Sequence record: DRR723986_5604
Length of the DNA: 53,214 nucleotides
Strand: one strand, 5' to 3'
This document shows, one piece after another, positions 5,536-28,212 of the stretch. The first letter of the stretch is position 1; each line of letters opens with the position of its first letter. Both the position numbers and the translations under genes were made by a program. The notes beneath the pieces are model-generated. The model saw nothing but the letters and a program-made list of their open reading frames with translations, had not been told where the DNA came from and did no database searches.

Positions 5536-6573
5536 CTAACTGAGCAATTCTTCACAGCCCGTACCGGTCAGAATCTTCTGGACTTCACCCCGGGCGGCTG
5601 CGGGAAGCGCGGTGGCTTCTTCACGTAAATGCTTCAGGCATTTGGCTTGATACGGGAATGTCGGCTGTTTCCAGATCTGACCATCTATTTCCGTTTCAAA
5701 CTCGGGCTTTCCGGCGATGGCCGCCGCAGCATTCGCTTTGAGGAACGGGAGGTAGACCCGGCCTATTTCGCGAAGCAATGGTTTAAGCCGTTCTTCCGCC
5801 TGCTCACAGGTGAACCAGTCACCGTCTTCCGGTTCTAAACCGGACAAGTCTTCCACCCGGTCCAGCCAGGCTCTGACCCGGGCGGAGCGCCCGCTCGTCA
5901 AAGCTGCAGAGGTCGGCTCCACGATAGCGAGCTGCGTGAGCTGTCCATAAATTGCGAAATCGGCTGAAGAGGGCCGGGCGCCGAGCACATAGCCCGCGCC
6001 TTGCAACAAGGCATCCAGAAGGTCGATGAAGCGGAGATAGCTGGATTCAATGGTCGACGCGGTGACGTCATTCGAACCAACGACATAAAGCCGCTCAGTC
6101 TGCCGTTTACTGAACATGTCCGCCATTTTCTGCGCATCCGGCGCGGCAAGCGTCGGCAGAGACCAGTAGACGAGCAAAGGCGCGGCATTGTCACGGTCTG
6201 CTTCGAAATACCAGCGATAGTGGAACATGGCCTTGGTCAGCCATTCATCCGCATAATCTTCGATCAACTCATTCAGGAAAGCGAGCGCCGGATTTTCCGG
6301 AATGACGCTCCGGCCAGCATAGTCCCGTTCCAGCCGGCGGGTGATGGGTGTGGAATCGACTACAGCCTCAACATCACCGTTTCCATCAGGAAAATAGAAA
6401 GTCGGTAGCAGCTTCACCTTCGGCTGCGGAAGGCCTGGAGGCGGGTTTTGGTGCCCGCCCCAGAGAACCGCGTAGGAAATCCGTCGATACCGCAGCAAAG
6501 CCACCATCTTGCGTGTATACGGCGAACCGGGCGCGCCCATCAGCTTGAGACGATCGTCACCTGTGACGTCCAT
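5536..6573 (-). CDS. Glutathione S-transferase family protein
   Basis: GAPGSPYTRKM, LLPTF, DSTPI, and RPSSADF N-capping box; start chosen at the ATG after GGAGG. Confidence 0.8.
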   Translation of the reverse strand: MDVTGDDRLKLMGAPGSPYTRKMVALLRYRRISYAVLWGGHQNPPPGLPQPKVKLLPTFYFPDGNGDVEAVVDSTPITRRLERDYAGRSVIPENPALAFLNELIEDYADEWLTKAMFHYRWYFEADRDNAAPLLVYWSLPTLAAPDAQKMADMFSKRQTERLYVVGSNDVTASTIESSYLRFIDLLDALLQGAGYVLGARPSSADFAIYGQLTQLAIVEPTSAALTSGRSARVRAWLDRVEDLSGLEPEDGDWFTCEQAEERLKPLLREIGRVYLPFLKANAAAAIAGKPEFETEIDGQIWKQPTFPYQAKCLKHLREEATALPAAARGEVQKILTGTGCEELLS

Positions 6574-6663: not shown

Positions 6664-8457
6664 TCAACGCCGGATGAGACGCCGGACCAAGTAAACCAGG
6701 AAGCCGGCAATCGTGATGACTCCGATGAACAGGACGAGCAATTGAGGCCAATAGGCCTTGAACTGACGCGCCATTGTATTGCGCGTGATCTCTCTCAAAG
6801 AGCTATAGCCTTCCGGCACTTCCAGAACGCCGACACGCTTGCTATAAGCCTGATACTCATCCAGCATGTCCGCGAAGACACCCGGCTTGTCCGCGCTCAG
6901 ATCCTTCGTCTCCCCCGGATCCTGCTCGATATCATATAGCCGCCACTGGCCATCACCATGCGGCTTCTGATTGCGGGTGATCTTCCAGCGGCCCTTCAGG
7001 ATGGCAGAATTGCCCGATACTTCCATCCCGATCACATCGTCAGGCTGGTATACCGCCGCTTGCGCACCGGACAGGATCGGCCCTAAGCTGCGCCCGGTCA
7101 TCACATTATCCGGTGCTTCAATTCCCGCGTATTTCAGCAAGGTTGGCGCGATATCCGTCACAACTGTCCGGGCATCGACGGCCTCTCCTTCCGGCACGCC
7201 GGGCCCTGCCATGACCAGCGGCACGCGTAGGCCACCCTCCGATCCAAGAAACTTGAACATGTTATTGGGGGACGCCGCCGCGATCGCCCATTCCGGACCG
7301 ATAAAGCCCCAACTTCCCTGCTCCCCAATGCCATCAATGCCGATGTGATAGCCGTGCATCTTCATCCAGATCGTCAGGCGGATGTCTTCATCGCCGCGCG
7401 ATGGTTCCGGTCCATTGTCGGACGTCACGACGAAGATTGTATTTTCATACTGACCGGTCTGTTCGAGGTGATCGATGAGCCGGCCGATCTCGATGTCCAT
7501 GGCCTCCATCATGGCAGCGTTCACCTGCATCCGTGCTGCATAGAGGGCCTGATCGTCCGGGGAGAGATCGTTCCATGCGCGCATCTCTTCCGGCATATCG
7601 GCGAGCGGCGCATTCTCCGGAATCAAGCCGATCTCTTTCGCCTTTTGCCAGCGCGCTGTCCGCAGTGCATTCCACCCCTGGTCATAGACACCATCATATT
7701 CTGCGGTCAGTTGCGGAGGCGCCTGGACTGGAATGTGGATTGCCTGGAATGCCACATAGGCAAAGAATGGCTGATCCTGATCGCCCTCATCGAGATAGTC
7801 GATCATGTGATCGACGATCATGGTGGACGAGTAAAACGAGTCCGGCAGCTCTGCAGGCGCTCCATCCTCATACCATGGCGCTTTTTGATAATACGGCATG
7901 TAAGGCTTAGGAGACCAGTTATCGGCACCGGATGCATCCAGCGCCAGAGACCGGTCAAATCCATGTGCGTTGGGCAAGTCACCCGCGCCGCTGCCGAGAT
8001 GCCATTTACCGGACATCAGCGTCCGGTATCCGGTCGTCTTCAGCCTGTCTGCGAGAGTCAGGACGCCCGGTTCAAGATGCATCGTGTAGCCGGGCTGACC
8101 GACATGCTCCTTCGGCAGCACTTCGGGAATCGTGGCGATGCCGGTCATGTGATTGTCCATGCCGGTCAGGAGCATGGCCCGCGATGGCGAACAGAGAGGA
8201 GATGAATAATGCCGCCGGAACATGGCCCCGCGCGCGGCAAGCGCGTCGATGTTGGGTGTGCGCGCCTCTCCGCCATAGATGCCGAAGTCCATCAATGCCG
8301 CATCATCGACCAGGATAAGGACGATATTGGGCCGCGTAACTTCCGATTGGGCCTCGGCGGCCATGCCAGTACCGAACAGGGCGATCGCTGCGGTGATCCC
8401 CCCACCCAGCCATGCGAAACTTTTCCGAACGAAACCGCTCGCTTTCCAATCCGGCAT
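6664..8457 (-). CDS. Arylsulfatase (AtsA-like, Cys-type) with signal peptide and C-terminal TM anchor
   Basis: NIVLILVDD, CSPSR, GKWHLG, TSDNG; C-terminus WPQLLVLFIGVITIAGFLVYLVRRLIRR; start uncertain. Confidence 0.9.
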   Translation of the reverse strand: MPDWKASGFVRKSFAWLGGGITAAIALFGTGMAAEAQSEVTRPNIVLILVDDAALMDFGIYGGEARTPNIDALAARGAMFRRHYSSPLCSPSRAMLLTGMDNHMTGIATIPEVLPKEHVGQPGYTMHLEPGVLTLADRLKTTGYRTLMSGKWHLGSGAGDLPNAHGFDRSLALDASGADNWSPKPYMPYYQKAPWYEDGAPAELPDSFYSSTMIVDHMIDYLDEGDQDQPFFAYVAFQAIHIPVQAPPQLTAEYDGVYDQGWNALRTARWQKAKEIGLIPENAPLADMPEEMRAWNDLSPDDQALYAARMQVNAAMMEAMDIEIGRLIDHLEQTGQYENTIFVVTSDNGPEPSRGDEDIRLTIWMKMHGYHIGIDGIGEQGSWGFIGPEWAIAAASPNNMFKFLGSEGGLRVPLVMAGPGVPEGEAVDARTVVTDIAPTLLKYAGIEAPDNVMTGRSLGPILSGAQAAVYQPDDVIGMEVSGNSAILKGRWKITRNQKPHGDGQWRLYDIEQDPGETKDLSADKPGVFADMLDEYQAYSKRVGVLEVPEGYSSLREITRNTMARQFKAYWPQLLVLFIGVITIAGFLVYLVRRLIRR

Positions 8458-11518: not shown

Positions 11519-12201
11519 GCTCGGCGCACTCCCTGCCGGTCACGGTTGATGACGACTGGCTGGCCATGCAGTCAGCGGGATCGCTCTCGCCGTTCAAACA
11601 ACTCCTGCTAACCTGTCAGGCAGATATCAATCCGCATGTTCGGGAAGCCTTTATAACGGATGACCATGTGGCTGGCGTGCTTTTGGAAAGCGCGAAGCCT
11701 GCAGTGATGTCTGATGATTTTCTTTCCCGCCTGAATGCTCGTCTGGATACAAAAGTGGCAGGCAAAGCCGCTGTTGATGCAGCTTCGGCCGGCGCACGCG
11801 GAAAAGACAATCAGCCGGATTGGATGCCGTCACCGCTTGCTGATTACATACGGCGATCCGGCCGCCGACTCAAATGGCGGAGCGCGGGCCTGGGCGTTCA
11901 GCAGGCACGGCTCGGCCGGAATGAGCGGGGCGAACGGCTTTATCTGTTGCGCGCAAGGCCAGGACTTCCACTGCCGCGTCACTCCCACAGCGGACAGGAA
12001 TGGACGCTGGTTCTCGCAGGCGGATACAAGTCTGGCGCGCGGCAATTCGGTCCCGGTGACCTTCACCAGGAAGATGAAGGCTGCATGCATGACCTGCGGA
12101 TTGATGATGACGGGCCGTGCATTTCCCTCATTGTCGACGAAGGAAAGCTGAGGTTTGCGAACCCTCTGTTGCGTCTGTTCCAACCCGTACTTGGAATCTG
12201 A
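11515..12201 (+). CDS. chrR: Anti-sigma factor ChrR with cupin domain
   Basis: Cupin PRHSHSGQEWTLVLAG..GPGD..H..CI; ATGA overlap with rpoE. Confidence 0.88.
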   Translation: MSSAHSLPVTVDDDWLAMQSAGSLSPFKQLLLTCQADINPHVREAFITDDHVAGVLLESAKPAVMSDDFLSRLNARLDTKVAGKAAVDAASAGARGKDNQPDWMPSPLADYIRRSGRRLKWRSAGLGVQQARLGRNERGERLYLLRARPGLPLPRHSHSGQEWTLVLAGGYKSGARQFGPGDLHQEDEGCMHDLRIDDDGPCISLIVDEGKLRFANPLLRLFQPVLGI

Positions 12202-12256
12202 TTCGACAATTCCACCGGCATTGTGGGCTTATCGTATTCCTTTCAAATTGAGCCGA

Positions 12257-13408
12257 TCAAGTGACCTGGTTTGCGTTCCACACCCGCTGGAAATTCCCGC
12301 CAAGGAACGCAGCCAGTTCCAACTCACTCATGCCTTTTCGGCTGAGCAGTGCTACCAGGTCCGGCAGGCGCCTGTAGTCGTCGAAAACAGGCTTGTAGTT
12401 CGCATCCATGTCGGACCCGAGGCAGACATGCTCGATCCCGACCATGTCCACTAGCTGGAAAATCCGGTCGGCGAAGCCGGCAAGATCCCCGATTTCGATC
12501 CCTGTAGGCCAAGCCCCGATGATACCCCCTGCATCAGCGGCCGCTTTTGCCAGTTCAAGCGAAATGAAGCGCGGATGATAGGAGTAAGCTGAACTGATAT
12601 GCGTATGCGTGAACATGACCGGCCGGGTACTGAGTTCCAGAGCCCGAAACGCCCCGGCTTCGGCCATGTGTGACAGGTCGACCACCATTCCCAGCTGATT
12701 CATCTCCCGAACGATCGCATCGCCTTCAGAGGTCAGGCCATCATGGACCGGTTCATTGGTCATGGCGTCAGCAAGCCCGTTCGTCCGGTAATGAACCAGT
12801 GTGATGGATCTGACGCCGTCCTGGTACGCCTCGCGCACGCGCTCCGTTGAGCCCTCCAGAAAGTCTCCGCCCTCCACCGTCCAGATCGCACCGGGCCGGC
12901 CGGAGGCCCGCGCTGAATCCAGCGCATCTGGTTCCAGCATTTCCGAGACGAGTCCCTGCTCCGCAAGCCTCTTGAGATTACCGATCTGGATCTTGTAGCT
13001 CTGCCAGGCCTCTCCCTCCTCGAAGGGACGCCGGGCTTCGAGACCCTTGCCTTTCGCAAGATTCAGAACATTGAAGTCCGACACTGCGGCAAAGCAGGCC
13101 GCCGTTAGGTGGCCTTCGCGCATATCGCTGATTGTCCGGCGTTCGAAGCCGGACTGAGCCTTGTAAACCTTCAGAAGTGGTGCGAGGCCCGAGGCTCCGC
13201 GGGCAAATGTCCGTCCGGGGTGGGCATGACTGTCGATCGCCGGATACTTGTCCAGCAGCGCGACTGCGTTTGCTCGCTCTTCCTCGGATACCTCAAAACC
13301 AAGAGGCGCCGGCGCAGGCCGCTTGTTCAGCCAGTAAGCGCCATACGCTAAACCTGCGCCAGCGACCAGTCCGCCGCCGATCAGGGCGCGCCGCGTCAGT
13401 TTTCCCAT
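12257..13408 (-). CDS. Membrane/renal-type dipeptidase (peptidase M19), Tat signal
   Basis: LTRRALIGG signal; IDSHAH, VEGG, MNQLGMVVDLSH, HPRFI, GSDMD. Confidence 0.85.
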   Translation of the reverse strand: MGKLTRRALIGGGLVAGAGLAYGAYWLNKRPAPAPLGFEVSEEERANAVALLDKYPAIDSHAHPGRTFARGASGLAPLLKVYKAQSGFERRTISDMREGHLTAACFAAVSDFNVLNLAKGKGLEARRPFEEGEAWQSYKIQIGNLKRLAEQGLVSEMLEPDALDSARASGRPGAIWTVEGGDFLEGSTERVREAYQDGVRSITLVHYRTNGLADAMTNEPVHDGLTSEGDAIVREMNQLGMVVDLSHMAEAGAFRALELSTRPVMFTHTHISSAYSYHPRFISLELAKAAADAGGIIGAWPTGIEIGDLAGFADRIFQLVDMVGIEHVCLGSDMDANYKPVFDDYRRLPDLVALLSRKGMSELELAAFLGGNFQRVWNANQVT

Positions 13409-13515
13409 CTGCTCTTCCCTCCTCCCGGGTATTGCGATCCTACGACACCGCGGATATCCGACAAGATCTGTGAGCAGGCGTCCGCCAGGCTGGAAAGCTG
13501 AGACTGGTGCCCAGG

Positions 13516-13548
13516 AAAAAGGGCGAAGCGATCTGAACCGCCTCGCCC
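13516..13548 (-). terminator. Intrinsic terminator after the aminotransferase
   Basis: gggcgaggcggt-tcag-atcgcttcgccc followed by TTTTT on the minus strand. Confidence 0.75.
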
Positions 13549-13614
13549 GTATCTGTTTGATAGCTGATTGAGATGAGCGATGAAGGCGCCCCAAATCAGG
13601 ACGCCATTCTCTAA

Positions 13615-14784
13615 TCATGCACCGACGATGGCTGGGAGCGCTTTGCAGAAGCGTTCCACGTCTTCGATCTTGCCGGTCGAAACACGGGTCCAGTCGACAT
13701 AGTCCATGTATTGACCGCGGACAGAGATCTTCTGCTCAGCGAAAGCTTTCTGGACGTCGTTGGCTGCCTTGCCGGACTTGAAGAACACGAAGTTCGTCTG
13801 CGACGGCAAGTATTCGAGGCCGAGCGTGTCGAGCGTGGTCGTGATCATCTCACGCGCTTCTTTCACCTTCGCCTTGGAATAAGTCAGGAATTCCTCGTCA
13901 TTGTAGCAACCGATGGCCGCTGCGTACGACGTGCACGGCGACCAGGACATCGCCGTGGCCTGGATCTTCTGGGCAACTTCCGGCGAAGAGATCGTGTAGC
14001 CCATACGGATACCGGCCATGCCGTAGATCTTCGAGAAGGTCCGAGACACGATCACATTCGGATTGTCCTTGATCAGGCCGATGCAGGTGTTGCCTTCCGG
14101 ATCGTCGGCCAGTTCCATATAGGCTTCATCGACCAGAACCATCGTCTTGGAAGCCATGCGGGTTACGGCGGCTTTCAGCGTCGCGGCGTCTGCCACCAGG
14201 CCAGTCGGGTTGTTCGGATTGCATAGCTGGACGAGACCGGTTTCGGTCGTGACCTTCGCCTCAATACCTTCGAGGTCGGTCGTCATGTCCGCTTTCAGCG
14301 GCACACGGTCAATGGTCGCCATGCCAAGACGGGCGGCATAGAGGGCCGTCGTATCCCAGAACAGACGCGGCGCAACGATCGGGCCATTCGGACCATAGAT
14401 CATGGCTATTGCCGACAGCGCTTCGCCCGAGCCGGTGGTCAGCGCAATCTGCTCCGGCGCGACGCCGTTCTTTTCGGCGATCATCGTCGCCAGCTGTTTC
14501 ACTGCATCCTGCGAAGCGTAATAGGCGCCCTTCGAACCGGCATATTCGATCATTTTCAGCGCGGATGGAGACGGGCCGTAAGGGTTCTCGTTGCGCGAAA
14601 GAAGCGCCACGCCTTCCGGCGGACCGAGAAGGTAGGGGTTTTCAACAGCGACCTTCTGAGGCGGGAAGGCTGCCTCTGTGGTTTCCGCGATCGCCGATGC
14701 GCCCGACGCGCAGGCTGTTGCGCCTGCTACACCGAGGCCGGTCGCGCCAGCCAGAAGAAAACGTCTGGAAATATCGTAAGCCAT
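13615..14784 (-). CDS. PLP-dependent class I/II (HisC-like) aminotransferase with Tat signal
   Basis: SRRFLLAG signal; NENPYG, CNPNNPTG, VDEAY, RTFSKIYGMAGIR. Confidence 0.9.
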   Translation of the reverse strand: MAYDISRRFLLAGATGLGVAGATACASGASAIAETTEAAFPPQKVAVENPYLLGPPEGVALLSRNENPYGPSPSALKMIEYAGSKGAYYASQDAVKQLATMIAEKNGVAPEQIALTTGSGEALSAIAMIYGPNGPIVAPRLFWDTTALYAARLGMATIDRVPLKADMTTDLEGIEAKVTTETGLVQLCNPNNPTGLVADAATLKAAVTRMASKTMVLVDEAYMELADDPEGNTCIGLIKDNPNVIVSRTFSKIYGMAGIRMGYTISSPEVAQKIQATAMSWSPCTSYAAAIGCYNDEEFLTYSKAKVKEAREMITTTLDTLGLEYLPSQTNFVFFKSGKAANDVQKAFAEQKISVRGQYMDYVDWTRVSTGKIEDVERFCKALPAIVGA

Positions 14785-14859
14785 ATTCTGAATTACCTGT
14801 AGCCTTTGGGTTGAAAAGAAACTGAATCCTCGAGGTCCGCTTGATTGCGAATGGCAGCA

Positions 14860-15192
14860 TCATCCTGTCCGACGATTGTACAGGACTATGCCGGATGTTG
14901 CGACCGAAGGGGTAGCAATTGCCGTTGTGGCGCTTGCGACGTTGAATTGATGGGCAGCTTTGGTGCTCAAGAGGGCAGTCAGGAAAGAAATTGTCACGCT
15001 TGCCGCCGCGGCAATTGCATAGATCTCGAGCGAATACTCGAGAAGGAGATTCGCTGGCGCAATGTGCGAAATCACGAAGACTATGGCGCCGCACAAAGCA
15101 AGAGGAACCAAAACACTCCGAAAGGTTGATCCCTCGAAGACAAGAAGCGGTTCGCGGACGGCGGATGCGTGCCGCAATTTATTGCCAGACAT
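14860..15192 (-). CDS. Possible small membrane protein (hypothetical)
   Basis: ORF fills the TBDR-aminotransferase gap and has two hydrophobic stretches; no recognised motif. Confidence 0.3.
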   Translation of the reverse strand: MSGNKLRHASAVREPLLVFEGSTFRSVLVPLALCGAIVFVISHIAPANLLLEYSLEIYAIAAAASVTISFLTALLSTKAAHQFNVASATTAIATPSVATSGIVLYNRRTG

Positions 15193-15248
15193 TCTGATCT
15201 GCGTTGCCTGATCGAGGCTTTTCAAAGCGCCCCTTCCCGAAGATGCAA

Positions 15249-15308
15249 GGAGGGGTAGCGATACCCCTCCCCGCTAAAATGTCGCCCGCCCCGCTTACTA
15301 GGCGGGCG
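15249..15308 (-). terminator. Two tandem GC-rich hairpins just downstream of the TBDR
   Basis: ggaggggta-gcga-tacccctcc (15249-15270) and cgcccgcc..ggcgggcg (15283-15308); weak U-tract. Confidence 0.55.
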
Positions 15309-15322
15309 GATTTCATGCCGAC

Positions 15323-17950
15323 TTAGAAATTGGCCTGCAGTTTGACGTAGTAGTAGCCACCCTGCCAGTCGATGATGTCACCGGAGCGATAGATCCGGCC
15401 ACAGCAGCTGTCGCCGAGTTCCGCTTCATCCGGATACTGGTCGAAGGCATTACGTGCACCGAGCGAGATCTTCACAGCTTCAGAAGCCTGGAATGATCCC
15501 TCAAGGTCCACCTGAACCTTCGCACCATAATCCTGATAGCGCAGTGGAGCGTTCGAGCCGTCAGAGTTCGTCGACTCACCGTAGTAATTAGCGCGTGCCA
15601 GGAAGCTATACGGGCCAACGTCATGCGTCACAGAGAAGACGCCGCGCCATTTCGGATCGTAGTTCACGAAGTCATACTGGTCTTCATCGTTAAACAGGCT
15701 ACCAACATCACTGTCGAACTCGGTCTTGTTGTAGTTCACAGATGCGGTGAACTTGGTCGAAGACCCGTTTGCCCAATCCTTGGAGTAGGTCCCGACCACG
15801 TCGACACCCTTTGTGCTCGTGTCGAAGGCGTTGGTGAAGTAGAATACGCCACCGATCGATTCAGCACCGACAACTCCAGCGCCGACAAGGGCGAGATAGT
15901 TGTCATATGCGGTTCCGGACGTCGGATCCGTTGACACATCCTGCGTCGAGATCGCGTTCACACGATCTTCCAGGTCGATCTGGTAGAAGTCGACCGTCAG
16001 CGAGAAGGCATCATAGGAAGACGTGAAGCCCAGCGTGTAGTTGGTGGACTTCTCTGGCTTGAGCGGTTCGGCCCCCAGTGCGCCGGCGATCGGACCGCCT
16101 GCCGGGAACAGACCGGTTGCAACCGGGAAGCCGTTCGGAAGGCGGGTCGACACGTTGGTTGTACCTTGCTGACCCGGTGTCGGAGCGCGGAAGCCCGTAC
16201 CGACTGACCCGCGTACCGCGAAGTTCGGAGTGAATTCGTAGCGGCCGGCCAGTTTCCAGACCAGTTCGGAGTCGAAGTCCGAATAGTCTTCAAAGCGCAG
16301 AGCACCTTGCAGGAACAGGGAGTCAGTTACGTCAGCACTCAGATCACCATAGATAGCATAGGAGTCGCGAGTATACTCACCGGAGAACTCCGGTGAGTAG
16401 CCCGGGAAGCCGTTCGAACCCACGCCGAGCGCCGTGTAGACCGGATCAGAGGAGTCAGCACAATCCAGTGTGGAGCCGTTCGAGATGACGGCTGCACCTG
16501 CAGCAGTCGGCGCGCCTGCATCACAGAAGCCGTACGGATCCGGAAGCGAGTAAGGTCCATCGATGTAGGACTCGTAGTTCCCACCAACGAGTTCGTAGGA
16601 TTCATCCAGGTAGCTGGCACCGAAAGCGAAGAGCAGCGGGCTGGCCAGACCGGTTTCGAACTCCTTCGAGAAGTCGGCCTGCAGTTGCATTTCTTCGTTG
16701 ATCAGGTCACCTGGATGGAAGCTCGTCGGAGACATTTCGCCCAGCGACGGGTTGACCGTATTCTTCAGCGTGTACTTGATCTCGTTGTGACCGATACGGC
16801 CGCTGAAATCATAGGCGATCCCGTTATCCCATTCGCCACGCACACCACCGACACCGGAATAGTCGATGACGTTGCCGAAGAAGCGCGGGGTAAAGCCGCC
16901 AGGGAACAGGAACAGCGAAGACCAAAGCGAACCATCCTCAAGGCGGATGTTTTCGATCGTGCCGTTACCTGGATAACGATAGAAGAAGCTGCCGTCCGCT
17001 TCGGAGTTCGAATAATTGCCGAACCCGTACAACTCGAATGCACCAAAGTCATAGCCAGCATTCACAAAGGTACGGAACGCTTTGGCGTTTGGCTGACCCC
17101 AGGGCTGAACCACTCCGGAACCGGAATAGTCGGCACTGTCGAGGCCGGCGATGAAGGAGTCCAGATCGAACCCGGCGATGGAAGTATCACCTGGAGCAAA
17201 ATCCGGGCTGTTCACGTCCACACAGACCCAGCTTTCACAATACTGTTCGCCGCGAACGGTCATATCCGCTTTTGAGTATTCGGCCGAAACATTGACGAAG
17301 CCGTTGTCGCCAAGCGCAAGACCGAAGTTGCCAGCGAGGGTCGTGTTGAATCCGTCCCCCTCATAGTACTGACCGAAATCAGCACTGATGGAACCACCTT
17401 CCGGCGAGTCCTTCAGGATGAAGTTGATAACGCCGGCAATGGCGTCTGAACCGTACTGTGCTGCAGCGCCATCACGCAGAACTTCAACACTCTTAAGTGC
17501 GATAGCCGGGATGGTTGCGATATCCGGCCCCTGTGTGCCAGAACCGCCAATTTGAACCAGAGCGGCGCGGTGACGGCGCTTGGAGTTGACCAGAACAAGC
17601 GTCTTGTCGGTCGGCATACCACGCAGCGTGGCCGGGCGGATGAACGTGCCGCCATCCGAAATCGGCTGACGCGCCAGCGAGTAAGACGGAACCAGCGTCT
17701 TGATAATATCGTTCGCGTCCGTGAACGGCACGTCGGTAATTTCGTCCGAGCTAAGAACATCAACCGGAACCGGAGAGTCCATCACGGACCGCGCTTTGCC
17801 CCGCAAGCCGGTGATGATGACTTTTTCCTGGACGGAAGTTTCGTCTGCTGCCGGTTCATCGTCAGGCTCTGCATAAGCCACCCCCCCGGTGACCACCATT
17901 CCAACGACCGCGGACGATACGGCACATTTCAAGAAAGAACTAAATCGCAC
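15323..17950 (-). CDS. TonB-dependent receptor
   Basis: Signal peptide, VIITG, DSPVPVDV, VEVLRDGAAAQYGSDAIAGVIN, LKPEKS, C-terminal F; GTG start after AGGGA. Confidence 0.95.
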   Translation of the reverse strand: MRFSSFLKCAVSSAVVGMVVTGGVAYAEPDDEPAADETSVQEKVIITGLRGKARSVMDSPVPVDVLSSDEITDVPFTDANDIIKTLVPSYSLARQPISDGGTFIRPATLRGMPTDKTLVLVNSKRRHRAALVQIGGSGTQGPDIATIPAIALKSVEVLRDGAAAQYGSDAIAGVINFILKDSPEGGSISADFGQYYEGDGFNTTLAGNFGLALGDNGFVNVSAEYSKADMTVRGEQYCESWVCVDVNSPDFAPGDTSIAGFDLDSFIAGLDSADYSGSGVVQPWGQPNAKAFRTFVNAGYDFGAFELYGFGNYSNSEADGSFFYRYPGNGTIENIRLEDGSLWSSLFLFPGGFTPRFFGNVIDYSGVGGVRGEWDNGIAYDFSGRIGHNEIKYTLKNTVNPSLGEMSPTSFHPGDLINEEMQLQADFSKEFETGLASPLLFAFGASYLDESYELVGGNYESYIDGPYSLPDPYGFCDAGAPTAAGAAVISNGSTLDCADSSDPVYTALGVGSNGFPGYSPEFSGEYTRDSYAIYGDLSADVTDSLFLQGALRFEDYSDFDSELVWKLAGRYEFTPNFAVRGSVGTGFRAPTPGQQGTTNVSTRLPNGFPVATGLFPAGGPIAGALGAEPLKPEKSTNYTLGFTSSYDAFSLTVDFYQIDLEDRVNAISTQDVSTDPTSGTAYDNYLALVGAGVVGAESIGGVFYFTNAFDTSTKGVDVVGTYSKDWANGSSTKFTASVNYNKTEFDSDVGSLFNDEDQYDFVNYDPKWRGVFSVTHDVGPYSFLARANYYGESTNSDGSNAPLRYQDYGAKVQVDLEGSFQASEAVKISLGARNAFDQYPDEAELGDSCCGRIYRSGDIIDWQGGYYYVKLQANF

Positions 17951-18082
17951 TTTGTATTCCCTTTCCGCAGCGGAACCGTCACTCTCATATTGAGGTTCCG
18001 TCTGCCCCCTGTTGTCGAGCACACACCAGCTTCCCCCATTGGGCAGAACGCCCAAGGCACTGATATCCTGAGGTGTTGAATC

Positions 18083-18153
18083 GGCCCGCCGTTGAGCCAT
18101 ATACGTCAGCAGACTGCTCAAAATGCCTCCATTGGCATTCAGTTCCTGCTGAC
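18083..18153 (-). ncRNA. Putative ANTAR-target dual hexaloop leader RNA
   Basis: aaugcc-AAUGGA-ggcauu (18122-18139, on an extended gucagcag/cugcugac stem), a 6-nt linker, then ggcuc-AACGGC-gggcc (18083-18098); both loops have A1/G4; adjacent to an ANTAR gene. Confidence 0.65.
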
Positions 18154-18316
18154 TTGCCTATCAAGCTGTCCTGTGCCCCTGCGAATGCCAATTCGAAACG
18201 TGTCGCCAACGATGTTGAATCGTTAACTCGTCTCGCTTTTGTGCACTGCACACCAAACAACGCCCAAAGTCTCAGCACTCAGAATGCAGAAATCAGGCTC
18301 CAGAAGATCAGAGGTT

Positions 18317-19000
18317 TCATGGAAAAATCGCGAAGATTGCGAGAATGTTTTCCGCGATCTCCCGCAGTGGTTTTCCCTGAGTCATGGCCATGCGACGCAT
18401 GGAATCATAGACTTCCTGCTCCGCGAGACCGCTCTTCGTCATCAACAGGCCCTTGGCCCGCTCAATTGTCTTGCGGGCCGCGAGATCTTCCTGCGTTTTC
18501 TGCAACTGATCCTGCAGGGACAGCGTCAATGCATGACGCTCCTCTGCCACATTCAGGATTGCAGGAACGCGTTCCGGCTCCAGGCCATCGACGATGAATG
18601 CACTGACGCCAAGCTTTAACGCCCTGCTCATCTCTTCCCGGGATCCCTGATCGACGAACACGAGGACCGGCACAGCACGGAACCTTCGCATGGCCAGAAG
18701 ATCAGTCAGCAATTCCAGGTCTGCAGTTGGCGAGGCGAGAAGAATTGCCCGCGCGCCCATCAACCTTAATCGCCGGGTCTGCCAGTCCGCATGACCCGTG
18801 ATTTCAGTGTGATGCGGCTGCTCACCCAGCCCATTCGAAATCTGCCTGGCCCGCGTTTCATCGCTGGCAAGCACCAGGATCTGTCCACCCCAACTCGCCA
18901 TTTCGGACGCGGGAATGGATTGCTGTTGCTCTTCCAGCAAGACTGTACTGCGGGGATTCTCGGCAGCCATGTCGGTCGGGGCTCTCTGCAAAACATTCAA
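18317..19000 (-). CDS. NasT-like ANTAR antiterminator (pseudo-receiver plus ANTAR)
   Basis: GVSAFIVDGLEPER, LAARKTIERAKGLLM, EVYDSMRRMAM, LREIAE; start may instead be 18970. Confidence 0.9.
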   Translation of the reverse strand: MNVLQRAPTDMAAENPRSTVLLEEQQQSIPASEMASWGGQILVLASDETRARQISNGLGEQPHHTEITGHADWQTRRLRLMGARAILLASPTADLELLTDLLAMRRFRAVPVLVFVDQGSREEMSRALKLGVSAFIVDGLEPERVPAILNVAEERHALTLSLQDQLQKTQEDLAARKTIERAKGLLMTKSGLAEQEVYDSMRRMAMTQGKPLREIAENILAIFAIFP

Positions 19001-19318
19001 ACCATTGATGTCACTTGAATTTTGAGAACAACCGCACCGAGTCCAAACAGCCAGAATGAAGTTGGCATGTCAGATTGCCGCATCTGATTATTCCTGTTTC
19101 GCGATTGACCAAATACTCGGCACGAAAGGCTGCATTTACGCCCCATATCATTGTTGAGGCATTGTCCAGTTTCAGGGCAACCATGATCATGTCAGGTCAA
19201 AATCGCTGAATCAGCGTGCATTCCACTAGGCGACGCTTTGGTCTGGGGGGCGCGTCTTGACCCTTTAAAGGCAGAGCTCAACAGTCGCCTACGGGAACGC
19301 TTACGCATCGAGGAAATC

Positions 19319-20464
19319 ATGAAACGTAGAGACTTTCTGGCGACAGGGACTGGCCTCGGCATTGCTGCCCTCACGAGCTGTACAACGACCACTACGGGAT
19401 TTGCTCCCGCACCAGTGACCGGCGATGCGTTGGTCCAGTCCATCGATGCACCGATGCGGCCCATAAAATCCTCCATGAGCCGCGTGACTCGCACAATTGT
19501 CGGTCTGCGCCCCTTCCGAAAACCCGGTCCCCGGCTGGAAGCAGTGAAGATCGGTTCCAAGGATGTCGTGCATAATTACGGCCACGGCGGAGGGGGTGTT
19601 TCCCTGTCCTGGGGCGTCGCAGAGCTGGCAGCGGCACTCGTCAAAAAGACACACAGTGACAAGGTCGCCGTTCTGGGATCCGGTTCGATTGGCTTGTCGA
19701 CAGCCATTCTTCTCCAACGTACCGGCATAAAGGTAACGATCTACGCCAAGGATTTCCCGCCCTACACGACCTCGAACGTTGCGGGCGCCATGTGGCACCC
19801 GGTGACCCTGTTTGAAAATGATCAGGTCTCCCAGGAAACCCTGGCCATGCTGGATCTCGCCTCCCGGATCGCCTTCAACCGGTTCATCCGCTTTGCCAAC
19901 GATCCGAAATACGGCGTTTACTGGATCCGCCAATATTCATTGAGTGACCGACCCATGAGTACGATCCGGCCGTATGTGGGTGGCGACGCACTCTATCCGG
20001 GGCTCAAACGCAACCAGCCCGGCGGTCCGTTCGGCTTCCCGTACTATGACGGGTACTACACGCTGATGATCGACCCGGACATTTACCTGCGTGCACTGGT
20101 AAATGACTTCCTCGCGGCCGGTGGCAAGATGAAGGAAATGGCTTTTGAGACCGAGGGCGACCTCGAAAAGCTGCCGGAGCCCAGCATCGTGAACTGCATG
20201 GGACTTGGTTCCGGCAAGGTGTTCGGAGACGAAAGCATCATTCCGGCACGTGGTCAGCTGAGCTTTCTGCTGCCTCAGAACGACATTGATTATGGCTATG
20301 CCGGATCAACGGATGACTATGGCCTGCTTTACTCCTTCCCCAGGAAGACGGGAATTCTCCTGGGCGGATCTGTCGACAAGGGTGACTGGAGCCTCGAACC
20401 GAGGGCCGATGAAATCCGGCGGATGGTCGACGGTCATGCCTACCTCGCTTCCAAGCTGATCTAG
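19319..20464 (+). CDS. D-amino-acid oxidase family flavoprotein, Tat (lipo)protein, circularly permuted
   Basis: KRRDFL signal ending LTSC; GLRP..HNYGHGGGG..SWG precedes GSGSIG; TTSNVAGA, VNCMG, PARGQ, LGGS. Confidence 0.88.
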   Translation: MKRRDFLATGTGLGIAALTSCTTTTTGFAPAPVTGDALVQSIDAPMRPIKSSMSRVTRTIVGLRPFRKPGPRLEAVKIGSKDVVHNYGHGGGGVSLSWGVAELAAALVKKTHSDKVAVLGSGSIGLSTAILLQRTGIKVTIYAKDFPPYTTSNVAGAMWHPVTLFENDQVSQETLAMLDLASRIAFNRFIRFANDPKYGVYWIRQYSLSDRPMSTIRPYVGGDALYPGLKRNQPGGPFGFPYYDGYYTLMIDPDIYLRALVNDFLAAGGKMKEMAFETEGDLEKLPEPSIVNCMGLGSGKVFGDESIIPARGQLSFLLPQNDIDYGYAGSTDDYGLLYSFPRKTGILLGGSVDKGDWSLEPRADEIRRMVDGHAYLASKLI

Positions 20465-20499
20465 CCCCCCCACCAACTCAATCAGACACGGTGCCATGA

Positions 20500-20530
20500 C
20501 CGGGCCTTCACTCTGAAGGTCCGGCTTTTT
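20500..20530 (+). terminator. Intrinsic terminator
   Basis: ccgggccttca-ctc-tgaaggtccgg then cttttt. Confidence 0.8.
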
Positions 20531-20733
20531 GCATGAAGTCTCTAACCTCCTCGCCCACCCGCAATCCGTCGCTTTGACGCGACCGGTCAAAACTGTGTCG
20601 TCCGCCGTCAATACCGGCGCCGCTCCAACGAGTAGTCAGAATTCAGCTCACTTCTGAAGGGCAAGGCAACTCAAAACCGATGCCTCTCCCCAAAGGAAAA
20701 GCAGAACCCAAAACGCCTCTCATGGAGACCATC

Positions 20734-21543
20734 ATGTTTACCTCCCGCCTCCCACTGAAACTCGCCCTGGCATCGGCCGGACTGGCCGGCCTGCTGTTCG
20801 CCCAGCAAACTGCCAGCGCTGAAACCGCCCGCGCCGCGACCGCAAAAATGCCGCCGGTCAATGACGGCCTTCCCATGCCGGGCTTCACGATCGATCCGGC
20901 AACGACTGCAATCGTCATCACCGATCCGCAAAATGACTTCCTGTCACCGGAAGGCGTGACCTGGGGCGTTGTTGGCCAGAGCATCACCGAGAACGGCACG
21001 GTCGAAAACCTCGAGGCACTCTTCAAAGTTGCCGATGAGACCGGCATGCCCGTTTTCGTGTCGCCGCACTTCTATTTCGAACACGATCACAAATGGGAAT
21101 TCGAAGGCACGCTTGAAACACTGATGCACAGCATCGGCATGTTCGACCGTCCGCACGCCCTGACCGTGGAAGGATTTGAAGGATCCGGCGCCGATTGGCT
21201 CGATCGCTACAAGCCCTACATCAACAATGGCAAGACGGTCGTCACCAGTCCGCACAAAGTCTACGGCCCGGAAACCAATGACCTCGTCCTTCAGCTTCGC
21301 AAGGCGGGCATTTCGAAAGTCATCCTCGGTGGCATGTCGTCGAACCTCTGCACGGAATCCCACATGCGTGAACTGATCGAGCAGGGCTTCGAAGTGATGG
21401 TCGTAACTGATGCGACCGCAGGCGCCATCACTCCGCTCTACAACGGCTATGATGCGTCCTTGACCAACTTCCGGATGATCGCCAGCTCAGTCGACAACAC
21501 GGCAAACACCGTGAAAGCGATCAAGGCCGCTCACGGAAAGTAG
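20734..21543 (+). CDS. Isochorismatase-like cysteine hydrolase with signal peptide
   Basis: TDPQNDF, PHKVY, GMSSNLCTESH (D-K-C triad), DATA; signal ending ASA. Confidence 0.88.
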   Translation: MFTSRLPLKLALASAGLAGLLFAQQTASAETARAATAKMPPVNDGLPMPGFTIDPATTAIVITDPQNDFLSPEGVTWGVVGQSITENGTVENLEALFKVADETGMPVFVSPHFYFEHDHKWEFEGTLETLMHSIGMFDRPHALTVEGFEGSGADWLDRYKPYINNGKTVVTSPHKVYGPETNDLVLQLRKAGISKVILGGMSSNLCTESHMRELIEQGFEVMVVTDATAGAITPLYNGYDASLTNFRMIASSVDNTANTVKAIKAAHGK

Positions 21544-25347: not shown

Positions 25348-25681
25348 TTCGGAAACAAGGGCAGCCCCGGCAATGTCTGCCGCCATTCCACAAGCCGCTG
25401 CATTTTCTGGACTCATTTGGCCGAACCGGCCCATTCACACGCGCTGTGTCAGCTTGTTTTCGCGCCCATCCGGTCCGAGCACGCCTCCGGTCTGGCGGAG
25501 AATCGGAACGCCGCTTCGGGGCAGCATGCCCTCCCTCGCGGACATGCCACACAGCGTCCCCGCCCCACCGGTCAAAGCTGATTGAAATTTGGTCCGTTCC
25601 AAACAAAGAGCCGATTCGCCCCAGTTTTTCCTTTACCTGCGCCCCCGGTCACCTACGACGAAAGGACAAATGGAGGGTATT

Positions 25682-27256
25682 ATGGAGGGAGCGACCCGTC
25701 GATCTGCATTGGCGCTCATCGGGGCAACGGCTGGCAGCGCTGCGCTGTATGCCGCGATGAAGTCCATTCGACACGTCCAGCCGTCATCATATAAAGGCCC
25801 CATCAAGCTCGATGGAGATCCGAAAGGCGCGAAAGTCCTCATTCTCGGCGCGGGTCTCGCGGGCATGGTCGCAGCATTGGAGCTTCGATCCGCAGGCTAT
25901 GACGTCGAAGTTTTGGAGTATCGCGAGAAAGCCGGCGGCCGTTGCTGGACGCTGCGCGGCGGTGACACCTACACCGAGCTCGGCGGCGCGAGCCAGAAAG
26001 TTTCCTTCGAAGGCGACAACTATATCAATCCAGGGCCCTGGCGGATCCCTTATGATCATCATGGTGTGCTGGACTATTGCCAGCGTCTAGGGGTCCAACT
26101 GGAACCTTTCATCCAGCAAAACCACAACGCCTATATCCACAACAGCAAGGCGTTTGGCGGTAAGCCGCAACGTTTCAAACACATCGCCACAGACTATCGT
26201 GGCCAGACTTCGGAATTACTGGCCAAGGCGGTCGACCAGGATCGTCTGGATGACATGCTAACGTCGGAAGACCGTGAAGCGCTGATTGAATCGCTCCGGG
26301 CGACCGGGGCACTGGACGACACCAATTCGTATAAGGCCGGCGACCTGACCAGCCGGTATCGCGGTTTTGGCAAACCGCCCGGCGCCGGCTTCAATGGCGC
26401 GCCATCCGCTTCGGATCCGATCAGCCTGTCCGAAATCCTTCAATACCGCATGTGGGGCCGGCTGGCCGACGCAGACCTGCTGGATCACCAGATGCCGATG
26501 TTCCAACCGGTTGGCGGCATGGACATGATCGCGCAGGCATTTGCACGGGAAGTGGGTGATCTTATCCGCTTCAATTCCAAAGTCGTTTCGCTGCAACAGG
26601 ACGATGATGGCGTGAAAGTTGCCTACGAAGACACGCGCACAGGCGACACACTGACAACTCAAGCGGACTGGTGTGTGTGTACCGTACCATTCTCGATCCT
26701 CGGCCAGATAGATCACAATCTGTCACCGGAACTGACAGCAGCGGTGAATAACGTCTTCTATCGCGGGTCCGCAAAATGGGGCCTCGAATTCAAACGCCGG
26801 TTCTGGGAGCAGGATGAACATATCTATGGCGGGATCAGCTATACTGATCTTCCCATTGAAATGATCTCTTACCCCTCGACAGGTCTCTTCACCAAAGGCC
26901 CTGCCGTCCTTCTGGGCGGGTATACATGGGATGATGCGCAGGCATTTGAATTCAATGCCATGCAACCGGAAGACAGGATCAAATGGGCACTTGAATTCGG
27001 GTCGAAACTCCACCCGCAATATCTTGAAGAATTCAAGACCGGCGTCAGCATCGTCTGGCACAAGGTGCCATGGGTGCTCGGCTGCTTCGGTATCTGGCGG
27101 GACAAGGAAGCCCACTATGCAAATGCGGTGAAAATCGACAACCGCGTAGTCTGTGCCGGCGAGCACGTGTCTTATCTCGGTGCCTGGCTGGAAGGCGCCA
27201 TTGAATCTTCACTCGACGCGATTGGCCGTCTGCATGACAAGGTGATCAACGGATGA
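25682..27256 (+). CDS. Flavin monoamine oxidase / L-amino-acid oxidase family protein, Tat signal
   Basis: TRRSAL signal; GAGLAG, GGRCWT, NPGPWRIP, FQPVGGMD, AGEH..WLEGA. Confidence 0.92.
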   Translation: MEGATRRSALALIGATAGSAALYAAMKSIRHVQPSSYKGPIKLDGDPKGAKVLILGAGLAGMVAALELRSAGYDVEVLEYREKAGGRCWTLRGGDTYTELGGASQKVSFEGDNYINPGPWRIPYDHHGVLDYCQRLGVQLEPFIQQNHNAYIHNSKAFGGKPQRFKHIATDYRGQTSELLAKAVDQDRLDDMLTSEDREALIESLRATGALDDTNSYKAGDLTSRYRGFGKPPGAGFNGAPSASDPISLSEILQYRMWGRLADADLLDHQMPMFQPVGGMDMIAQAFAREVGDLIRFNSKVVSLQQDDDGVKVAYEDTRTGDTLTTQADWCVCTVPFSILGQIDHNLSPELTAAVNNVFYRGSAKWGLEFKRRFWEQDEHIYGGISYTDLPIEMISYPSTGLFTKGPAVLLGGYTWDDAQAFEFNAMQPEDRIKWALEFGSKLHPQYLEEFKTGVSIVWHKVPWVLGCFGIWRDKEAHYANAVKIDNRVVCAGEHVSYLGAWLEGAIESSLDAIGRLHDKVING

Positions 27257-27696
27257 GACATCAAGCCCGCAGCGCTCTAACCGCCCTCGCTTTCTCGACC
27301 ACCGCGCTCAGCATGCAAGCCGATCAAGGCATCCCTGAAATCACAAGCTTCGAACCGACGCCACTTGAGAAGAAAATATTCGACGGCCCGGGCGTCACCG
27401 TGACCAGCGGCGACGAGATTTACTCCACGCTCTGTGCGGGCTGCCATATGCCAGAAGGAAAAGGCGCAGTAGGCGGTGGCATGTACCCCGCCCTCGCGGG
27501 GAATGAGAAGCTTGAATATCCGGATTATGCTGTCTTTATCGTCCTGAACGGGTACAAAGCGATGCCATCATTCGCCCACACGCTTTCCGACGAGCAGGTT
27601 GCCGCGGTCGTCAATTACCTGCAGTCCGGACTGGGTGAAAATTCTTATGAACCGGCCGCAACGGTCGAACAGGTCGAACTAAGCCGGCCTCAATAA
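27253..27696 (+). CDS. Mono-heme cytochrome c
   Basis: CAGCH, distal MPSF, LSDEQVAAVVNY; ATGA coupling. Confidence 0.92.
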   Translation: MRHQARSALTALAFSTTALSMQADQGIPEITSFEPTPLEKKIFDGPGVTVTSGDEIYSTLCAGCHMPEGKGAVGGGMYPALAGNEKLEYPDYAVFIVLNGYKAMPSFAHTLSDEQVAAVVNYLQSGLGENSYEPAATVEQVELSRPQ

Positions 27697-27717
27697 TCTG
27701 AATACGGAGTGAAACCT

Positions 27718-28212
27718 ATGCGCTTTACCATCCCTCTTCTTTCGATTGCCGCCATTGCACTTGGCGCCTGCGGCGCTGCCGACAGTGAAGTCATCCGTCA
27801 CAAGATTCCAGGATCCGACTTCCCGATCCTTCAGGCAGTTGAAGTGCCCGCTGATGCAACACTGGTCTATCTGAGCGGCGCAGGCCCAGCGGTCACCGAC
27901 GAAACTGCTGAACCGCGAACCCCGGCGGCCTATGGGGATATTACAACCCAGACCGAAACCACTCTGGCGACAATCGAGTCCCGCCTCGCGGGTCTCGGAT
28001 TGACGATGAGCGATGTCATCAAAATGCAGGTCTATATTGTTGCCGCTCCGGGCGAAGACTCGCTGGACTTTGGCGGCTTCATGGAAGGCTACGTGAAGTT
28101 CTTCGGGACGGAAGAGCAACCGAACCTGCCGACCCGCTCGGTGTTCGAGGTCGCCGGTCTCGCCAACCCGGGTTGGCTGATTGAAATCGAAGTTGTTGCA
28201 GTTCGCGACTAG
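27718..28212 (+). CDS. Rid/YjgF family imine deaminase, predicted lipoprotein
   Basis: LGAC lipobox; VYLSG, DVIK, PTRS (catalytic Arg), LIEIE. Confidence 0.9.
   Translation: MRFTIPLLSIAAIALGACGAADSEVIRHKIPGSDFPILQAVEVPADATLVYLSGAGPAVTDETAEPRTPAAYGDITTQTETTLATIESRLAGLGLTMSDVIKMQVYIVAAPGEDSLDFGGFMEGYVKFFGTEEQPNLPTRSVFEVAGLANPGWLIEIEVVAVRD

Follow-up and report, generated by a model that had tools for sequence, protein, structure and literature searches.

Which of the genes that stand side by side at positions 12257-20530 of DRR723986_5604 form a functional unit, and what might that unit do? This stretch of 53,214 nucleotides (nt), hereafter the window, belongs to a marine Hyphomonas and contains 47 open reading frames (ORFs). 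In the block examined, the minus strand encodes an M19-family protein, a class I/II pyridoxal phosphate (PLP) aminotransferase (AT), a TonB-dependent receptor (TBDR) and a protein with an ANTAR domain, and the plus strand encodes a DAO-family flavoprotein, hereafter the oxidase (Table 1). An earlier note on this DNA had read these five genes as a single nitrogen-harvesting system. The identities and orientations that it assigned were all recovered as ORFs and Pfam matches, as were the twin-arginine motifs of the three enzymes (SRRFLL in AT, KRRDFL in the oxidase and TRRALIGG in the M19 protein). By gene order across relatives, however, the five-gene proposal fails, and the operon that is really conserved is ANTAR-TBDR-(TauE)-AT. 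The functional unit is likely to be an operon of marine Hyphomonadaceae that is dedicated to uptake and controlled by ANTAR, composed of the ANTAR gene, a long leader, the TBDR gene, a gene for a TauE/SafE permease and the gene for a HisC-like AT of the twin-arginine translocation (Tat) type, with the M19 and oxidase genes excluded.

The delimitation of this module comes from a search of genome contigs with the AT sequence, which gave 161 relatives, the top-matching contig being that of Hyphomonas sp. CY54-11-8. The best 80 loci, each taken with 10-kb flanks, represent Hyphomonas, Henriciella, Ponticaulis, Hirschia, Maricaulis, Hyphococcus, Marinicaulis, Parvularcula, Aquisalinus and other metagenome-assembled genomes (MAGs); handles beginning with L denote such locus stretches, and G001, G014, G061 and G174 are related genomes used for comparison. 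The nearest of the genomes compared, G001, shares 29% of the window's sampled 31-letter words and encodes module proteins that are 95-99% identical. An ANTAR gene was detected by tblastn in 55 of the 80 loci, while de novo clustering of ORFs placed ANTAR in 53, TBDR in 62 and, immediately 5' of AT, a protein of about 280 residues in 69. The latter is a permease that matches the TauE/SafE (DUF81, TSUP) family of anion transporters over its full length (PF01925, E 1.5e-43). The order ANTAR-TBDR-TauE-AT is collinear in 44 loci, five more have ANTAR-TBDR-AT but lack TauE (four of these are the nearest relatives of the window) and ten have TBDR-TauE-AT with no clustered ANTAR ORF. The other arrangements are TauE-AT alone (eight loci, several at contig ends), a reordered TauE-AT2-TBDR (three), ANTAR-TauE-AT (one) and nine that could not be classified. 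Strains in which the module is intact include Hirschia maritima DSM 19733 (L129), Ponticaulis koreensis DSM 19734 (L120) and Henriciella pelagia LA220 (L076), whereas Hyphomonas sp. CY54-11-8 is TauE-less. TBDR orthologues are 52-99% identical and lie immediately 3' of the ANTAR leader. The synteny between ANTAR, TBDR and all three Tat enzymes that the earlier note had put forward as a check is not conserved across these loci: the oxidase gene lies within 10 kb of AT in 6/80, all of one Hyphomonas subclade, and the M19 gene in 4/80.

Two variants of this organisation were observed. In L088 and L090, ANTAR is followed by two tandem TBDR paralogues, each with its own hairpin leader (at about 2950-3100 and 6074-6182). 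In L085, L086, L092, L093 and L100 (Hyphococcus, Marinicaulis and related MAGs), a TauE-AT2-TBDR unit that lacks ANTAR and the orthologous AT are arranged back to back, with about 1 kb devoid of large ORFs between them; AT2, a paralogue of AT, is 45-47% identical to it. Since the model of the leader motif described below (covariance model R1) gives no match at the TauE-AT2-TBDR units, their control must differ.

The regulator carries a clear ANTAR domain (PF03861, E 3e-17, 62.6 bits against a cut-off of 27.3). Its probable start is at 18898 or 18970, within an ORF that extends to 19000. The N-terminal part gives no Response_reg match in Pfam and is closest to the non-phosphorylated adaptor domain of PleD and to the receiver regions of Rv1626 and AmiR; over the whole protein, the relatives in the PDB are Rv1626, an EutV-like regulator, NasR and AmiR. 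Among 54 regulator sequences, not one column of the first 110 residues is conserved at 80% or more, so that there is no conserved phospho-acceptor aspartate. The regulator also evolves faster than the enzyme with which it travels, with 33-52% identity across genera against 63-75% for AT.

The stretch between the ANTAR and TBDR genes supports control at the RNA level, as the earlier note had proposed for the TBDR operon: its leader contains hexaloop hairpins that are conserved, with covariation, in related genera. The TBDR start was corrected to the GTG at 17950 from 18121, and the stretch upstream of it is non-coding because the closest relatives have 1- and 2-nt indels there. The window leader is highly conserved in G001 and G014, apart from these frame-breaking indels. 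In the 54 other loci and the window, the ANTAR-TBDR spacer measures 339-671 nt, mostly 360-470 nt. The recognition element of ANTAR proteins, as set out in part of PMC3369931, consists of paired stem-loops with hexanucleotide loops in which A is first and G fourth. Two such stem-loops, with A1/G4 hexaloops, are present in the 5' leader of the window, the first of them inside a longer conserved stem. With a count that required at least two tandem hairpins with a six-base A..G.. loop and a stem of at least 4 bp, 47 of 55 leaders scored, compared with 34 of 1078 random 400-nt windows from the same loci and a mean of 1.7/55 after shuffling. At leader positions 130-300, 76 of 156 distinct hexaloop hairpins have both A1 and G4, and the loop consensus is approximately AAnGGC.

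Global MAFFT alignment of whole leaders, with 1017 columns, was too divergent for use, and covariation was assessed on an alignment of 18 leaders. It contains three A1/G4 hairpins, with compensatory changes in 11 of 15 pairs. Its cells are paired in 95.2% of cases, against 82.4% when shuffled and 34-51% in slid controls, and the covariation score of 0.486 (0.223 in shuffles) was reached by none of 500 shuffles. The covariance model R1 gave 41 matches at E<=1 in 1.54 Mb, every one directly 5' of a TBDR gene. These fall in 39 loci, all with ANTAR (both TBDR copies being matched in L088 and L090), and in none of 25 ANTAR-less loci. Over 151 genomes of the order, nine have a match, one each, and the seven strong ones lie 130-260 nt 3' of ANTAR genes. 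Among the best 30 ANTAR loci, R1 matched 13 of the 14 with a TBDR gene downstream and 0 of the 16 without one. The window and its closest relatives carry a two-hairpin variant, which also shows compensatory changes in an alignment of ten sequences. A second model, R2, built for this clade since R1 missed the window, found one strong site each in G001, G014, G061 and G174, and one weak match (E 0.7) in G014.

Other signals in this region are few. A conserved promoter-like block lies 60-100 nt 3' of the ANTAR stop and is a candidate promoter. A sigma-54 promoter consensus was matched in 0/55 leaders, which gives no sign of NtrC-type control there. An Rfam search over 12000-21000 returned three sub-threshold chance matches only. 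In four runs, contigs from metatranscriptome libraries cover TBDR (for example a 3,023-nt contig, 15123-18123) and AT, the runs that cover AT coming from three to four studies, and a 640-nt contig spans the leader and the ANTAR gene (17999-18638). Among the contigs listed, none joins M19 and AT, and contig gaps or ends carry no weight.

The cargo of the module is a receptor and an exported enzyme. TBDR has a signal peptide and lacks an N-terminal signalling extension. AT is predicted to be exported, with the twin-arginine motif present in 77 of 79 orthologues, and the lysine motif TFSK that would bind PLP is kept in at least 95% of 80 sequences. Against NCBIfam it scores 248 bits with PRK09105, 214 with hisC and 201.4 with PtaA, every one under its cut-off; that of the PtaA equivalog, NF051461, is 500 bits, and nothing exceeded it in 6 related and 14 control genomes. 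In the Protein Atlas, AT falls in generic aminotransferase clusters only. By its twin-arginine signal and its aminotransferase fold with a PLP lysine, AT nevertheless belongs with the PtaA-like predicted periplasmic transaminases. PtaA of fluorescent pseudomonads, as described in passages of PMC6206403, is likewise a HisC-like PLP transaminase that bears a twin-arginine signal and is exported already folded around its cofactor. According to the same source, no other Tat-exported periplasmic transaminase has been characterised, and PtaA also occurs in species that do not produce pyoverdine. A pyoverdine review, in the part that deals with this enzyme, states that PtaA relatives in non-producers must have another role. 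AT differs from PtaA in its low score, in the lack of pyoverdine genes nearby and in its coupling to TBDR, TauE and an ANTAR leader.

A twin-arginine motif is also present in another HisC-like aminotransferase of G001 (SRRSLMKL; L148, G001:C23:207764-208861, minus strand). It is 35% identical to the module AT, and no TauE, TBDR or ANTAR gene lies in the 4 kb around it. Between the TBDR stop and the TauE relic of the window, at 15246-15317, there are two GC-rich hairpins, one with an AUCGCU hexaloop. This segment gives an Rfam chrB-a match below threshold (22.6 against 43.9 bits), and the hairpins are probably terminator-like elements or elements like repetitive extragenic palindromes.

In the window itself the operon is reduced, with TBDR and AT intact and TauE present as a C-terminal relic. 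With the intact TauE of L065/L063 as query, tblastn aligned residues 201-280 of 280 (E 3e-11, 45% identity) with a small ORF in the 539-nt spacer between TBDR and AT, which has no Pfam match and falls well short of a full-length permease. The statement of the earlier note that the block has no obvious inner-membrane importer holds for an intact one, and is true only because the importer gene has decayed here; what the note missed is the truncated TauE relic. Among close relatives the relic is 45-60% identical, with flanking genes at 88-99%, and in some it is wholly gone.

By domains and RNA motif, the control logic of the module is like that of EutV, NasR and AmiR; it departs from theirs in terminator and partner sensor. 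With EutV/EutW and the eut leaders of Enterococcus faecalis, as described in part of PMC3369931, it shares an ANTAR regulator, tandem A1/G4 hexaloops and a regulator encoded at the locus that it controls. Unlike that system, it has neither a histidine kinase partner nor a conserved phospho-acceptor, it usually has three hairpins and not two, no overlapping intrinsic terminator was found, and its cargo is TBDR, TauE and an exported transaminase, not ethanolamine catabolism. With NasT/NasS of Paracoccus denitrificans, to the extent covered by the relevant passages of PMC9409073, it has in common the receiver-like plus ANTAR layout, the alphaproteobacterial host and a probable independence of phosphorylation, but no nasS or nitrate genes lie near it, identity is about 35%, and in G001 the NasT-like paralogue is separate. 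AmiR/AmiC of Pseudomonas aeruginosa, on the partial account of PMC12591593, also combines a pseudo-receiver ANTAR protein, control without phosphorylation and a leader before a nitrogen-source operon; the module differs in having no gene for an AmiC-like sequestering sensor and no amidase gene.

In the literature, mostly judged by title and the start of the abstract, no work was found in which ANTAR is connected to Hyphomonas or to a TonB-dependent receptor, and no TauE/SafE member emerged as described beside an exported transaminase and a TBDR. Both ANTAR and TonB-dependent occur in the text seen of PMC9409073, in unrelated contexts. The word 'TonB' is absent from the text and the supplement text of a 2012 ANTAR paper, whose other supplements could still list such leaders, and from a 2025 review of RNA-binding antiterminators.

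Several observations weigh against a dedicated, ANTAR-controlled uptake operon. Kinship among the 80 loci means that their counts overstate independence. R1 has no match at E<=1 on the window itself, and in its clade the model is weak (E 0.01-0.035 in three relatives, none in G001), while R2, with an effective number of 1.45, is nearly a sequence profile, so that a diverged second site could escape it. No U-tract or intrinsic terminator was found between the hairpins and the TBDR start, either on the minus strand of the window (17950-18316) or in the folded and aligned leaders of other genera; regulation might operate through translation or Rho-dependent termination rather than by intrinsic antitermination. 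Among the ORF clusters, no partner sensor (cognate kinase or EutW/NasS/AmiC-type protein) is conserved in or beside the module. The RNA evidence consists of assembled contigs, which indicate presence only, carry no transcript ends and may include DNA carry-over. TauE is lost in this strain and in 7/9 close relatives, L063 and L065 retaining it, so that the operon either works without TauE or is decaying here. The receptor gives no substrate clue, as TBDR matches PDB entries by its plug domain alone, and these are catecholate-siderophore and B12 receptors. Finally, a gene for a PiuC-like 2-oxoglutarate-Fe(II) oxygenase lies at L112 5598-6275 (+), directly 5' of an ANTAR-less TBDR(cluster 9)-TauE-AT, the one neighbour that hints at a role in iron.

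The last of these points at the same time favours a role for the module in the uptake and modification of a metallophore or siderophore-like compound, with AT acting as PtaA does on pyoverdine. The PtaA precedent, the 201 bits of AT on the PtaA model and the resemblance of the TBDR plug to the receptors PiuA, PirA and FepA point in the same direction. Nonetheless this explanation is improbable. The PtaA score lies far under 500 bits and is equalled or exceeded by those of hisC and PRK09105, the similarity limited to the plug is generic, and there are no siderophore synthesis genes among the annotated loci. Fur boxes are not enriched: the best matches in the 55 leaders and the ANTAR start regions reach 9-12 of 19 positions, as in controls. 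Moreover, ANTAR regulators have so far been found to control nitrogen-source and related metabolism, according to passages of PMC3369931 and PMC12591593.

It is similarly improbable that the operon of this strain is a decaying, functionless remnant that has lost its permease and from which nearby DNA has been deleted. The state of TauE, a fast-diverging 80-residue relic flanked by well-conserved genes, and the nature of the region as an indel hot spot speak for such decay. On the other hand, the TBDR, AT and ANTAR frames are intact and 95-99% identical to those of G001, the leader is more conserved than the regulator gene, and the loss of TauE is common to at least seven related genomes, all of which retain the other genes. 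RNA-library contigs of three studies cover TBDR and AT, as presence only.

The proposal that all five genes form one system, importing peptidoglycan-type dipeptides or D-amino acids and releasing ammonium in the periplasm, is very unlikely. It can appeal to five intact genes, to the paired arginines (RR) of the three enzymes, to an oxidase that truly belongs to the D-amino-acid oxidase (DAAO)/D-aspartate oxidase (DDO) family and to an M19 protein whose nearest solved relative is the Sco3058 dipeptidase. In addition, the oxidase gene is divergent from ANTAR in the window and nine close relatives, that is, in all ten genomes of the subclade that were examined, and M19 lies within about 6 kb in several. 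The M19 protein matches its family profile almost in full (PF01244, E 4e-54, 316 of 319 profile positions covered; closest solved structures 3id7, E 3e-27, and 2rag). Its likely start is the ATG at 13408 (MGKLTRRALIGG, after the ribosome site GGGAGGAGGG), the ORF to 13618 being over-extended, and its putative signal, which may be cleaved or act as an anchor, consists of TRRALIGG followed by a hydrophobic stretch.

The position of the M19 gene next to AT, on the other hand, is a novelty of this strain. A strong intrinsic terminator, kept in G001 and G014, sits between the AT stop and the M19 start. About 60 nt 3' of it, the similarity of the window to these two genomes breaks. Window 12000-13454 aligns by blastn with L057 (G001) 6707-8161, and window 13451-15400 with L057 13248-15198. 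According to this alignment, M19 and AT became adjacent through a deletion of 5,086 bp that none of the other strains examined shares. The segment lost (L057 8162-13247 in G001) holds an isochorismatase gene, a TetR gene, a second TBDR gene and most of a DUF2817 gene, of whose 3' end about 57 nt are left in the window. In G001, isochorismatase and TetR lie upstream of M19 on the same strand; the second TBDR and DUF2817 are divergent from them, and DUF2817 converges on AT. The distance from M19 to AT is about 5.3 kb in G001, G014, G061 and G174, where M19 comes last in a TetR-isochorismatase-M19 unit. Given the deletion and the gene order of the relatives, M19 is a member of that unit in the relatives and a neighbour of AT here alone. 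The arrangement in the relatives, with TetR-isochorismatase-M19 divergent from TBDR2-DUF2817, resembles a locus of its own for the use of peptides or amides. No M19 gene was found in the examined stretches of L065 and L063, which have both module and oxidase. The stretch examined of L065 also lacks every gene of the deleted segment, which marks the site of the deletion as an indel hot spot.

The oxidase gene, by its own terminator and its distribution, is a clade-specific neighbour outside the conserved module. An oxidase homologue occurs in 13 of 41 sampled related genomes, and among 11 loci around such homologues, module genes are present only in G001 and G014; the other nine, with 37-48% identity, have none. 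The six annotated neighbourhoods of oxidase homologues vary, with purL, a terminase like that of gene transfer agents, other TBDRs or a transhydrogenase nearby. No pair of ANTAR-type hairpins was found 5' of either the oxidase or M19, and R2 has no second strong site in the four clade genomes. Because M19 and the oxidase are not co-conserved with TBDR-AT, the periplasmic cleavage and deamination of imported dipeptides or D-amino acids that had been proposed is without comparative support.

That the ANTAR protein is a NasT acting on distant nitrate-assimilation genes, its adjacency to TBDR being coincidental, is the least credible of the alternatives: it shares with NasT the receiver-like plus ANTAR layout and is about 35% identical to the NasT-like proteins found in the order, whereas G001 has a separate ANTAR paralogue, the ANTAR-TBDR adjacency with a hairpin leader recurs across genera, and neither the NasT-like locus in G001 nor any of the 16 ANTAR loci lacking TBDR is matched by R1. 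This paralogue, on the same contig as the module and 35-36% identical, lies beside genes for a nasA-type molybdopterin nitrate reductase, an nirBD-type nitrite reductase and an ABC transporter, and its presence there implies that the window protein is not the nitrate regulator. Neither nasS nor a nitrate or nitrite reductase gene occurs among the 47 ORFs of the window, as had been noted. In a quick midpoint-rooted FastTree of ANTAR proteins with two very long branches, read by topology only, module-type and NasT-like proteins are not cleanly separated, and no conclusion was based on it.

If the module is indeed a dedicated uptake operon, its working may be pictured as follows. The ANTAR protein would bind the hairpins of the nascent leader, and expression would then proceed into TBDR, TauE and AT. 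TBDR would bring an amine-bearing (or oxo-bearing) compound into the periplasm, where the PLP enzyme would transaminate it. TauE would take the product inward or move a co-substrate, an oxo-acid or amino-acid partner, across the inner membrane. Enzymes of the HisC class have phosphorylated amines and aromatic amino acids as substrates. The TauE family is associated with sulfonate anions: it has roles in sulfite and sulfoacetate export, and its known members belong to organosulfonate pathways. These substrates incline the analysis, with low confidence, towards an anionic amine used as a nitrogen source.

Table 1. Positions of the features in the window (aa, amino acids)
Feature	Position	Strand	Evidence or detail
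M19-family (renal-dipeptidase-like) protein, 383 aa, RR motif	12257..13408	-	Pfam Peptidase_M19
Junction of the 5,086-bp deletion relative to G001, 4 nt overlap	13451..13454		blastn
Intrinsic terminator ending the AT gene	13521..13548	-	12-pair stem, 8 GC pairs, then TTTTT
AT, Tat-type HisC-like PLP aminotransferase, 389 aa	13615..14784	-	Pfam Aminotran_1_2 (PF00155, E 9e-50)
TauE/SafE (PF01925) relic	14860..15189	-	tblastn
TBDR, 875 aa, GTG start, signal peptide	15323..17950	-	Pfam Plug and beta-barrel
Leader of the TBDR operon, 366 nt	17951..18316	-	two ANTAR-type hexaloop hairpins
Hairpin 2, UGGCUC-AACGGC-GGGCCG	18099-18082	-	A1/G4 loop
Hairpin 1, GAAUGCC-AAUGGA-GGCAUUU	18140-18121	-	inside longer conserved stem
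ANTAR regulator, degenerate receiver-like N-terminal domain and ANTAR domain	18317..18970	-	Pfam PF03861
Oxidase, permuted D-amino-acid/D-aspartate-oxidase-family flavoprotein, Tat signal and lipobox	19319..20464	+	phmmer against PDB, AlphaFold model
Terminator 3' of the oxidase gene	20500..20524	+	11-pair stem, then CTTTTT

The oxidase is of interest in its own right. Its start was placed at the ATG at 19319, which gives a signal with KRRDFL and the lipobox LTSC. Both segments of the DAAO family are there, but their canonical order is swapped: in a phmmer comparison with 6rkf, query residues 114-370 align with chain residues 13-264 and query residues 58-110 with 281-336. The segment that ends the canonical enzymes (GLRP...HNYGHGG...SWG) thus precedes the start of the Rossmann fold and follows the Tat signal and lipobox. 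The AlphaFold model (pLDDT 84, pTM 0.82) finds DAAO or DDO in all listed PDB matches to rank 30, with about 273 aligned columns. In common with known DAAO/DDO enzymes (PDB 6rkf, 2du8 and 1c0i), which provide the best fold match, the protein has the Rossmann motif for flavin adenine dinucleotide (FAD), HNYGHGG and the GLRP arginine; it differs from them in that their C-terminal segment is N-terminal here. Six homologues from alpha- and gammaproteobacteria all have the same order and the RR motif, and five of them (not P0086) have a lipobox-type cysteine. Across 18 homologues, RR (R3 and R4), the GLRP arginine and HNYGHGG are invariant. By alignment and predicted structure, the oxidase is a natural circular permutant of the DAAO/DDO family and, to judge by its signal, a Tat-exported lipoprotein. 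Homologues with the same order, whose annotation goes no further than FAD-dependent oxidoreductase, are present in marine alpha- and gammaproteobacteria, among them Haliea, Congregibacter, Paraglaciecola, Ponticaulis and Henriciella, which points to a permuted Tat-lipoprotein D-amino-acid-oxidase family widespread in marine bacteria. In the literature on circular permutation and D-amino acid oxidase, as far as titles and the starts of abstracts allow a judgement, nothing on this permutant was apparent.

Further along the window, 3' of this oxidase, which would form H2O2, the segment 20680-25295 contains an isochorismatase-family gene, a YHS-domain gene, DUF1348 and ahpF-ahpC; ahpF is the immediate neighbour of the oxidase gene in G061, possibly by coincidence. 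At 25589-28212 (+), three consecutive genes encode a flavin amine oxidase (555 aa), a cytochrome c and a member of the RidA/L-PSP family; they may be a unit for the oxidation of amines or amino acids that includes a partner for handling imines.

The arrangement of the window is a caution for inference from gene order, since two of the five genes of what resembles an operon owe their position to a recent deletion or to a clade-specific neighbourhood. ANTAR regulators are common, yet to our knowledge few of their target operons are understood, namely those for amides, nitrate, ethanolamine and mycobacterial lipid genes. The ANTAR-TBDR-(TauE)-AT module widens the range of ANTAR control by a well-conserved case with a different cargo, in which uptake across the outer membrane is combined with a permease of the TauE family and a transaminase for export. 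With one clear RNA site per genome, the specificity between regulator and RNA should be easy to test, and the module offers a defined genetic context for the role of periplasmic transaminases. It is possible, if short of probable, that the module represents an undescribed periplasmic route of marine stalked bacteria, in which a scarce amine nutrient would be taken up through the TBDR, its amino group harvested by a Tat-type PLP enzyme and the anionic oxo-acid partner supplied or removed by TauE, under the control of an ANTAR protein that has no kinase and acts on a leader with three hairpins and no classical terminator. If this is true, it would be the first ANTAR regulon built on outer-membrane uptake and would give PtaA-like periplasmic transaminases a physiological role outside pyoverdine producers.

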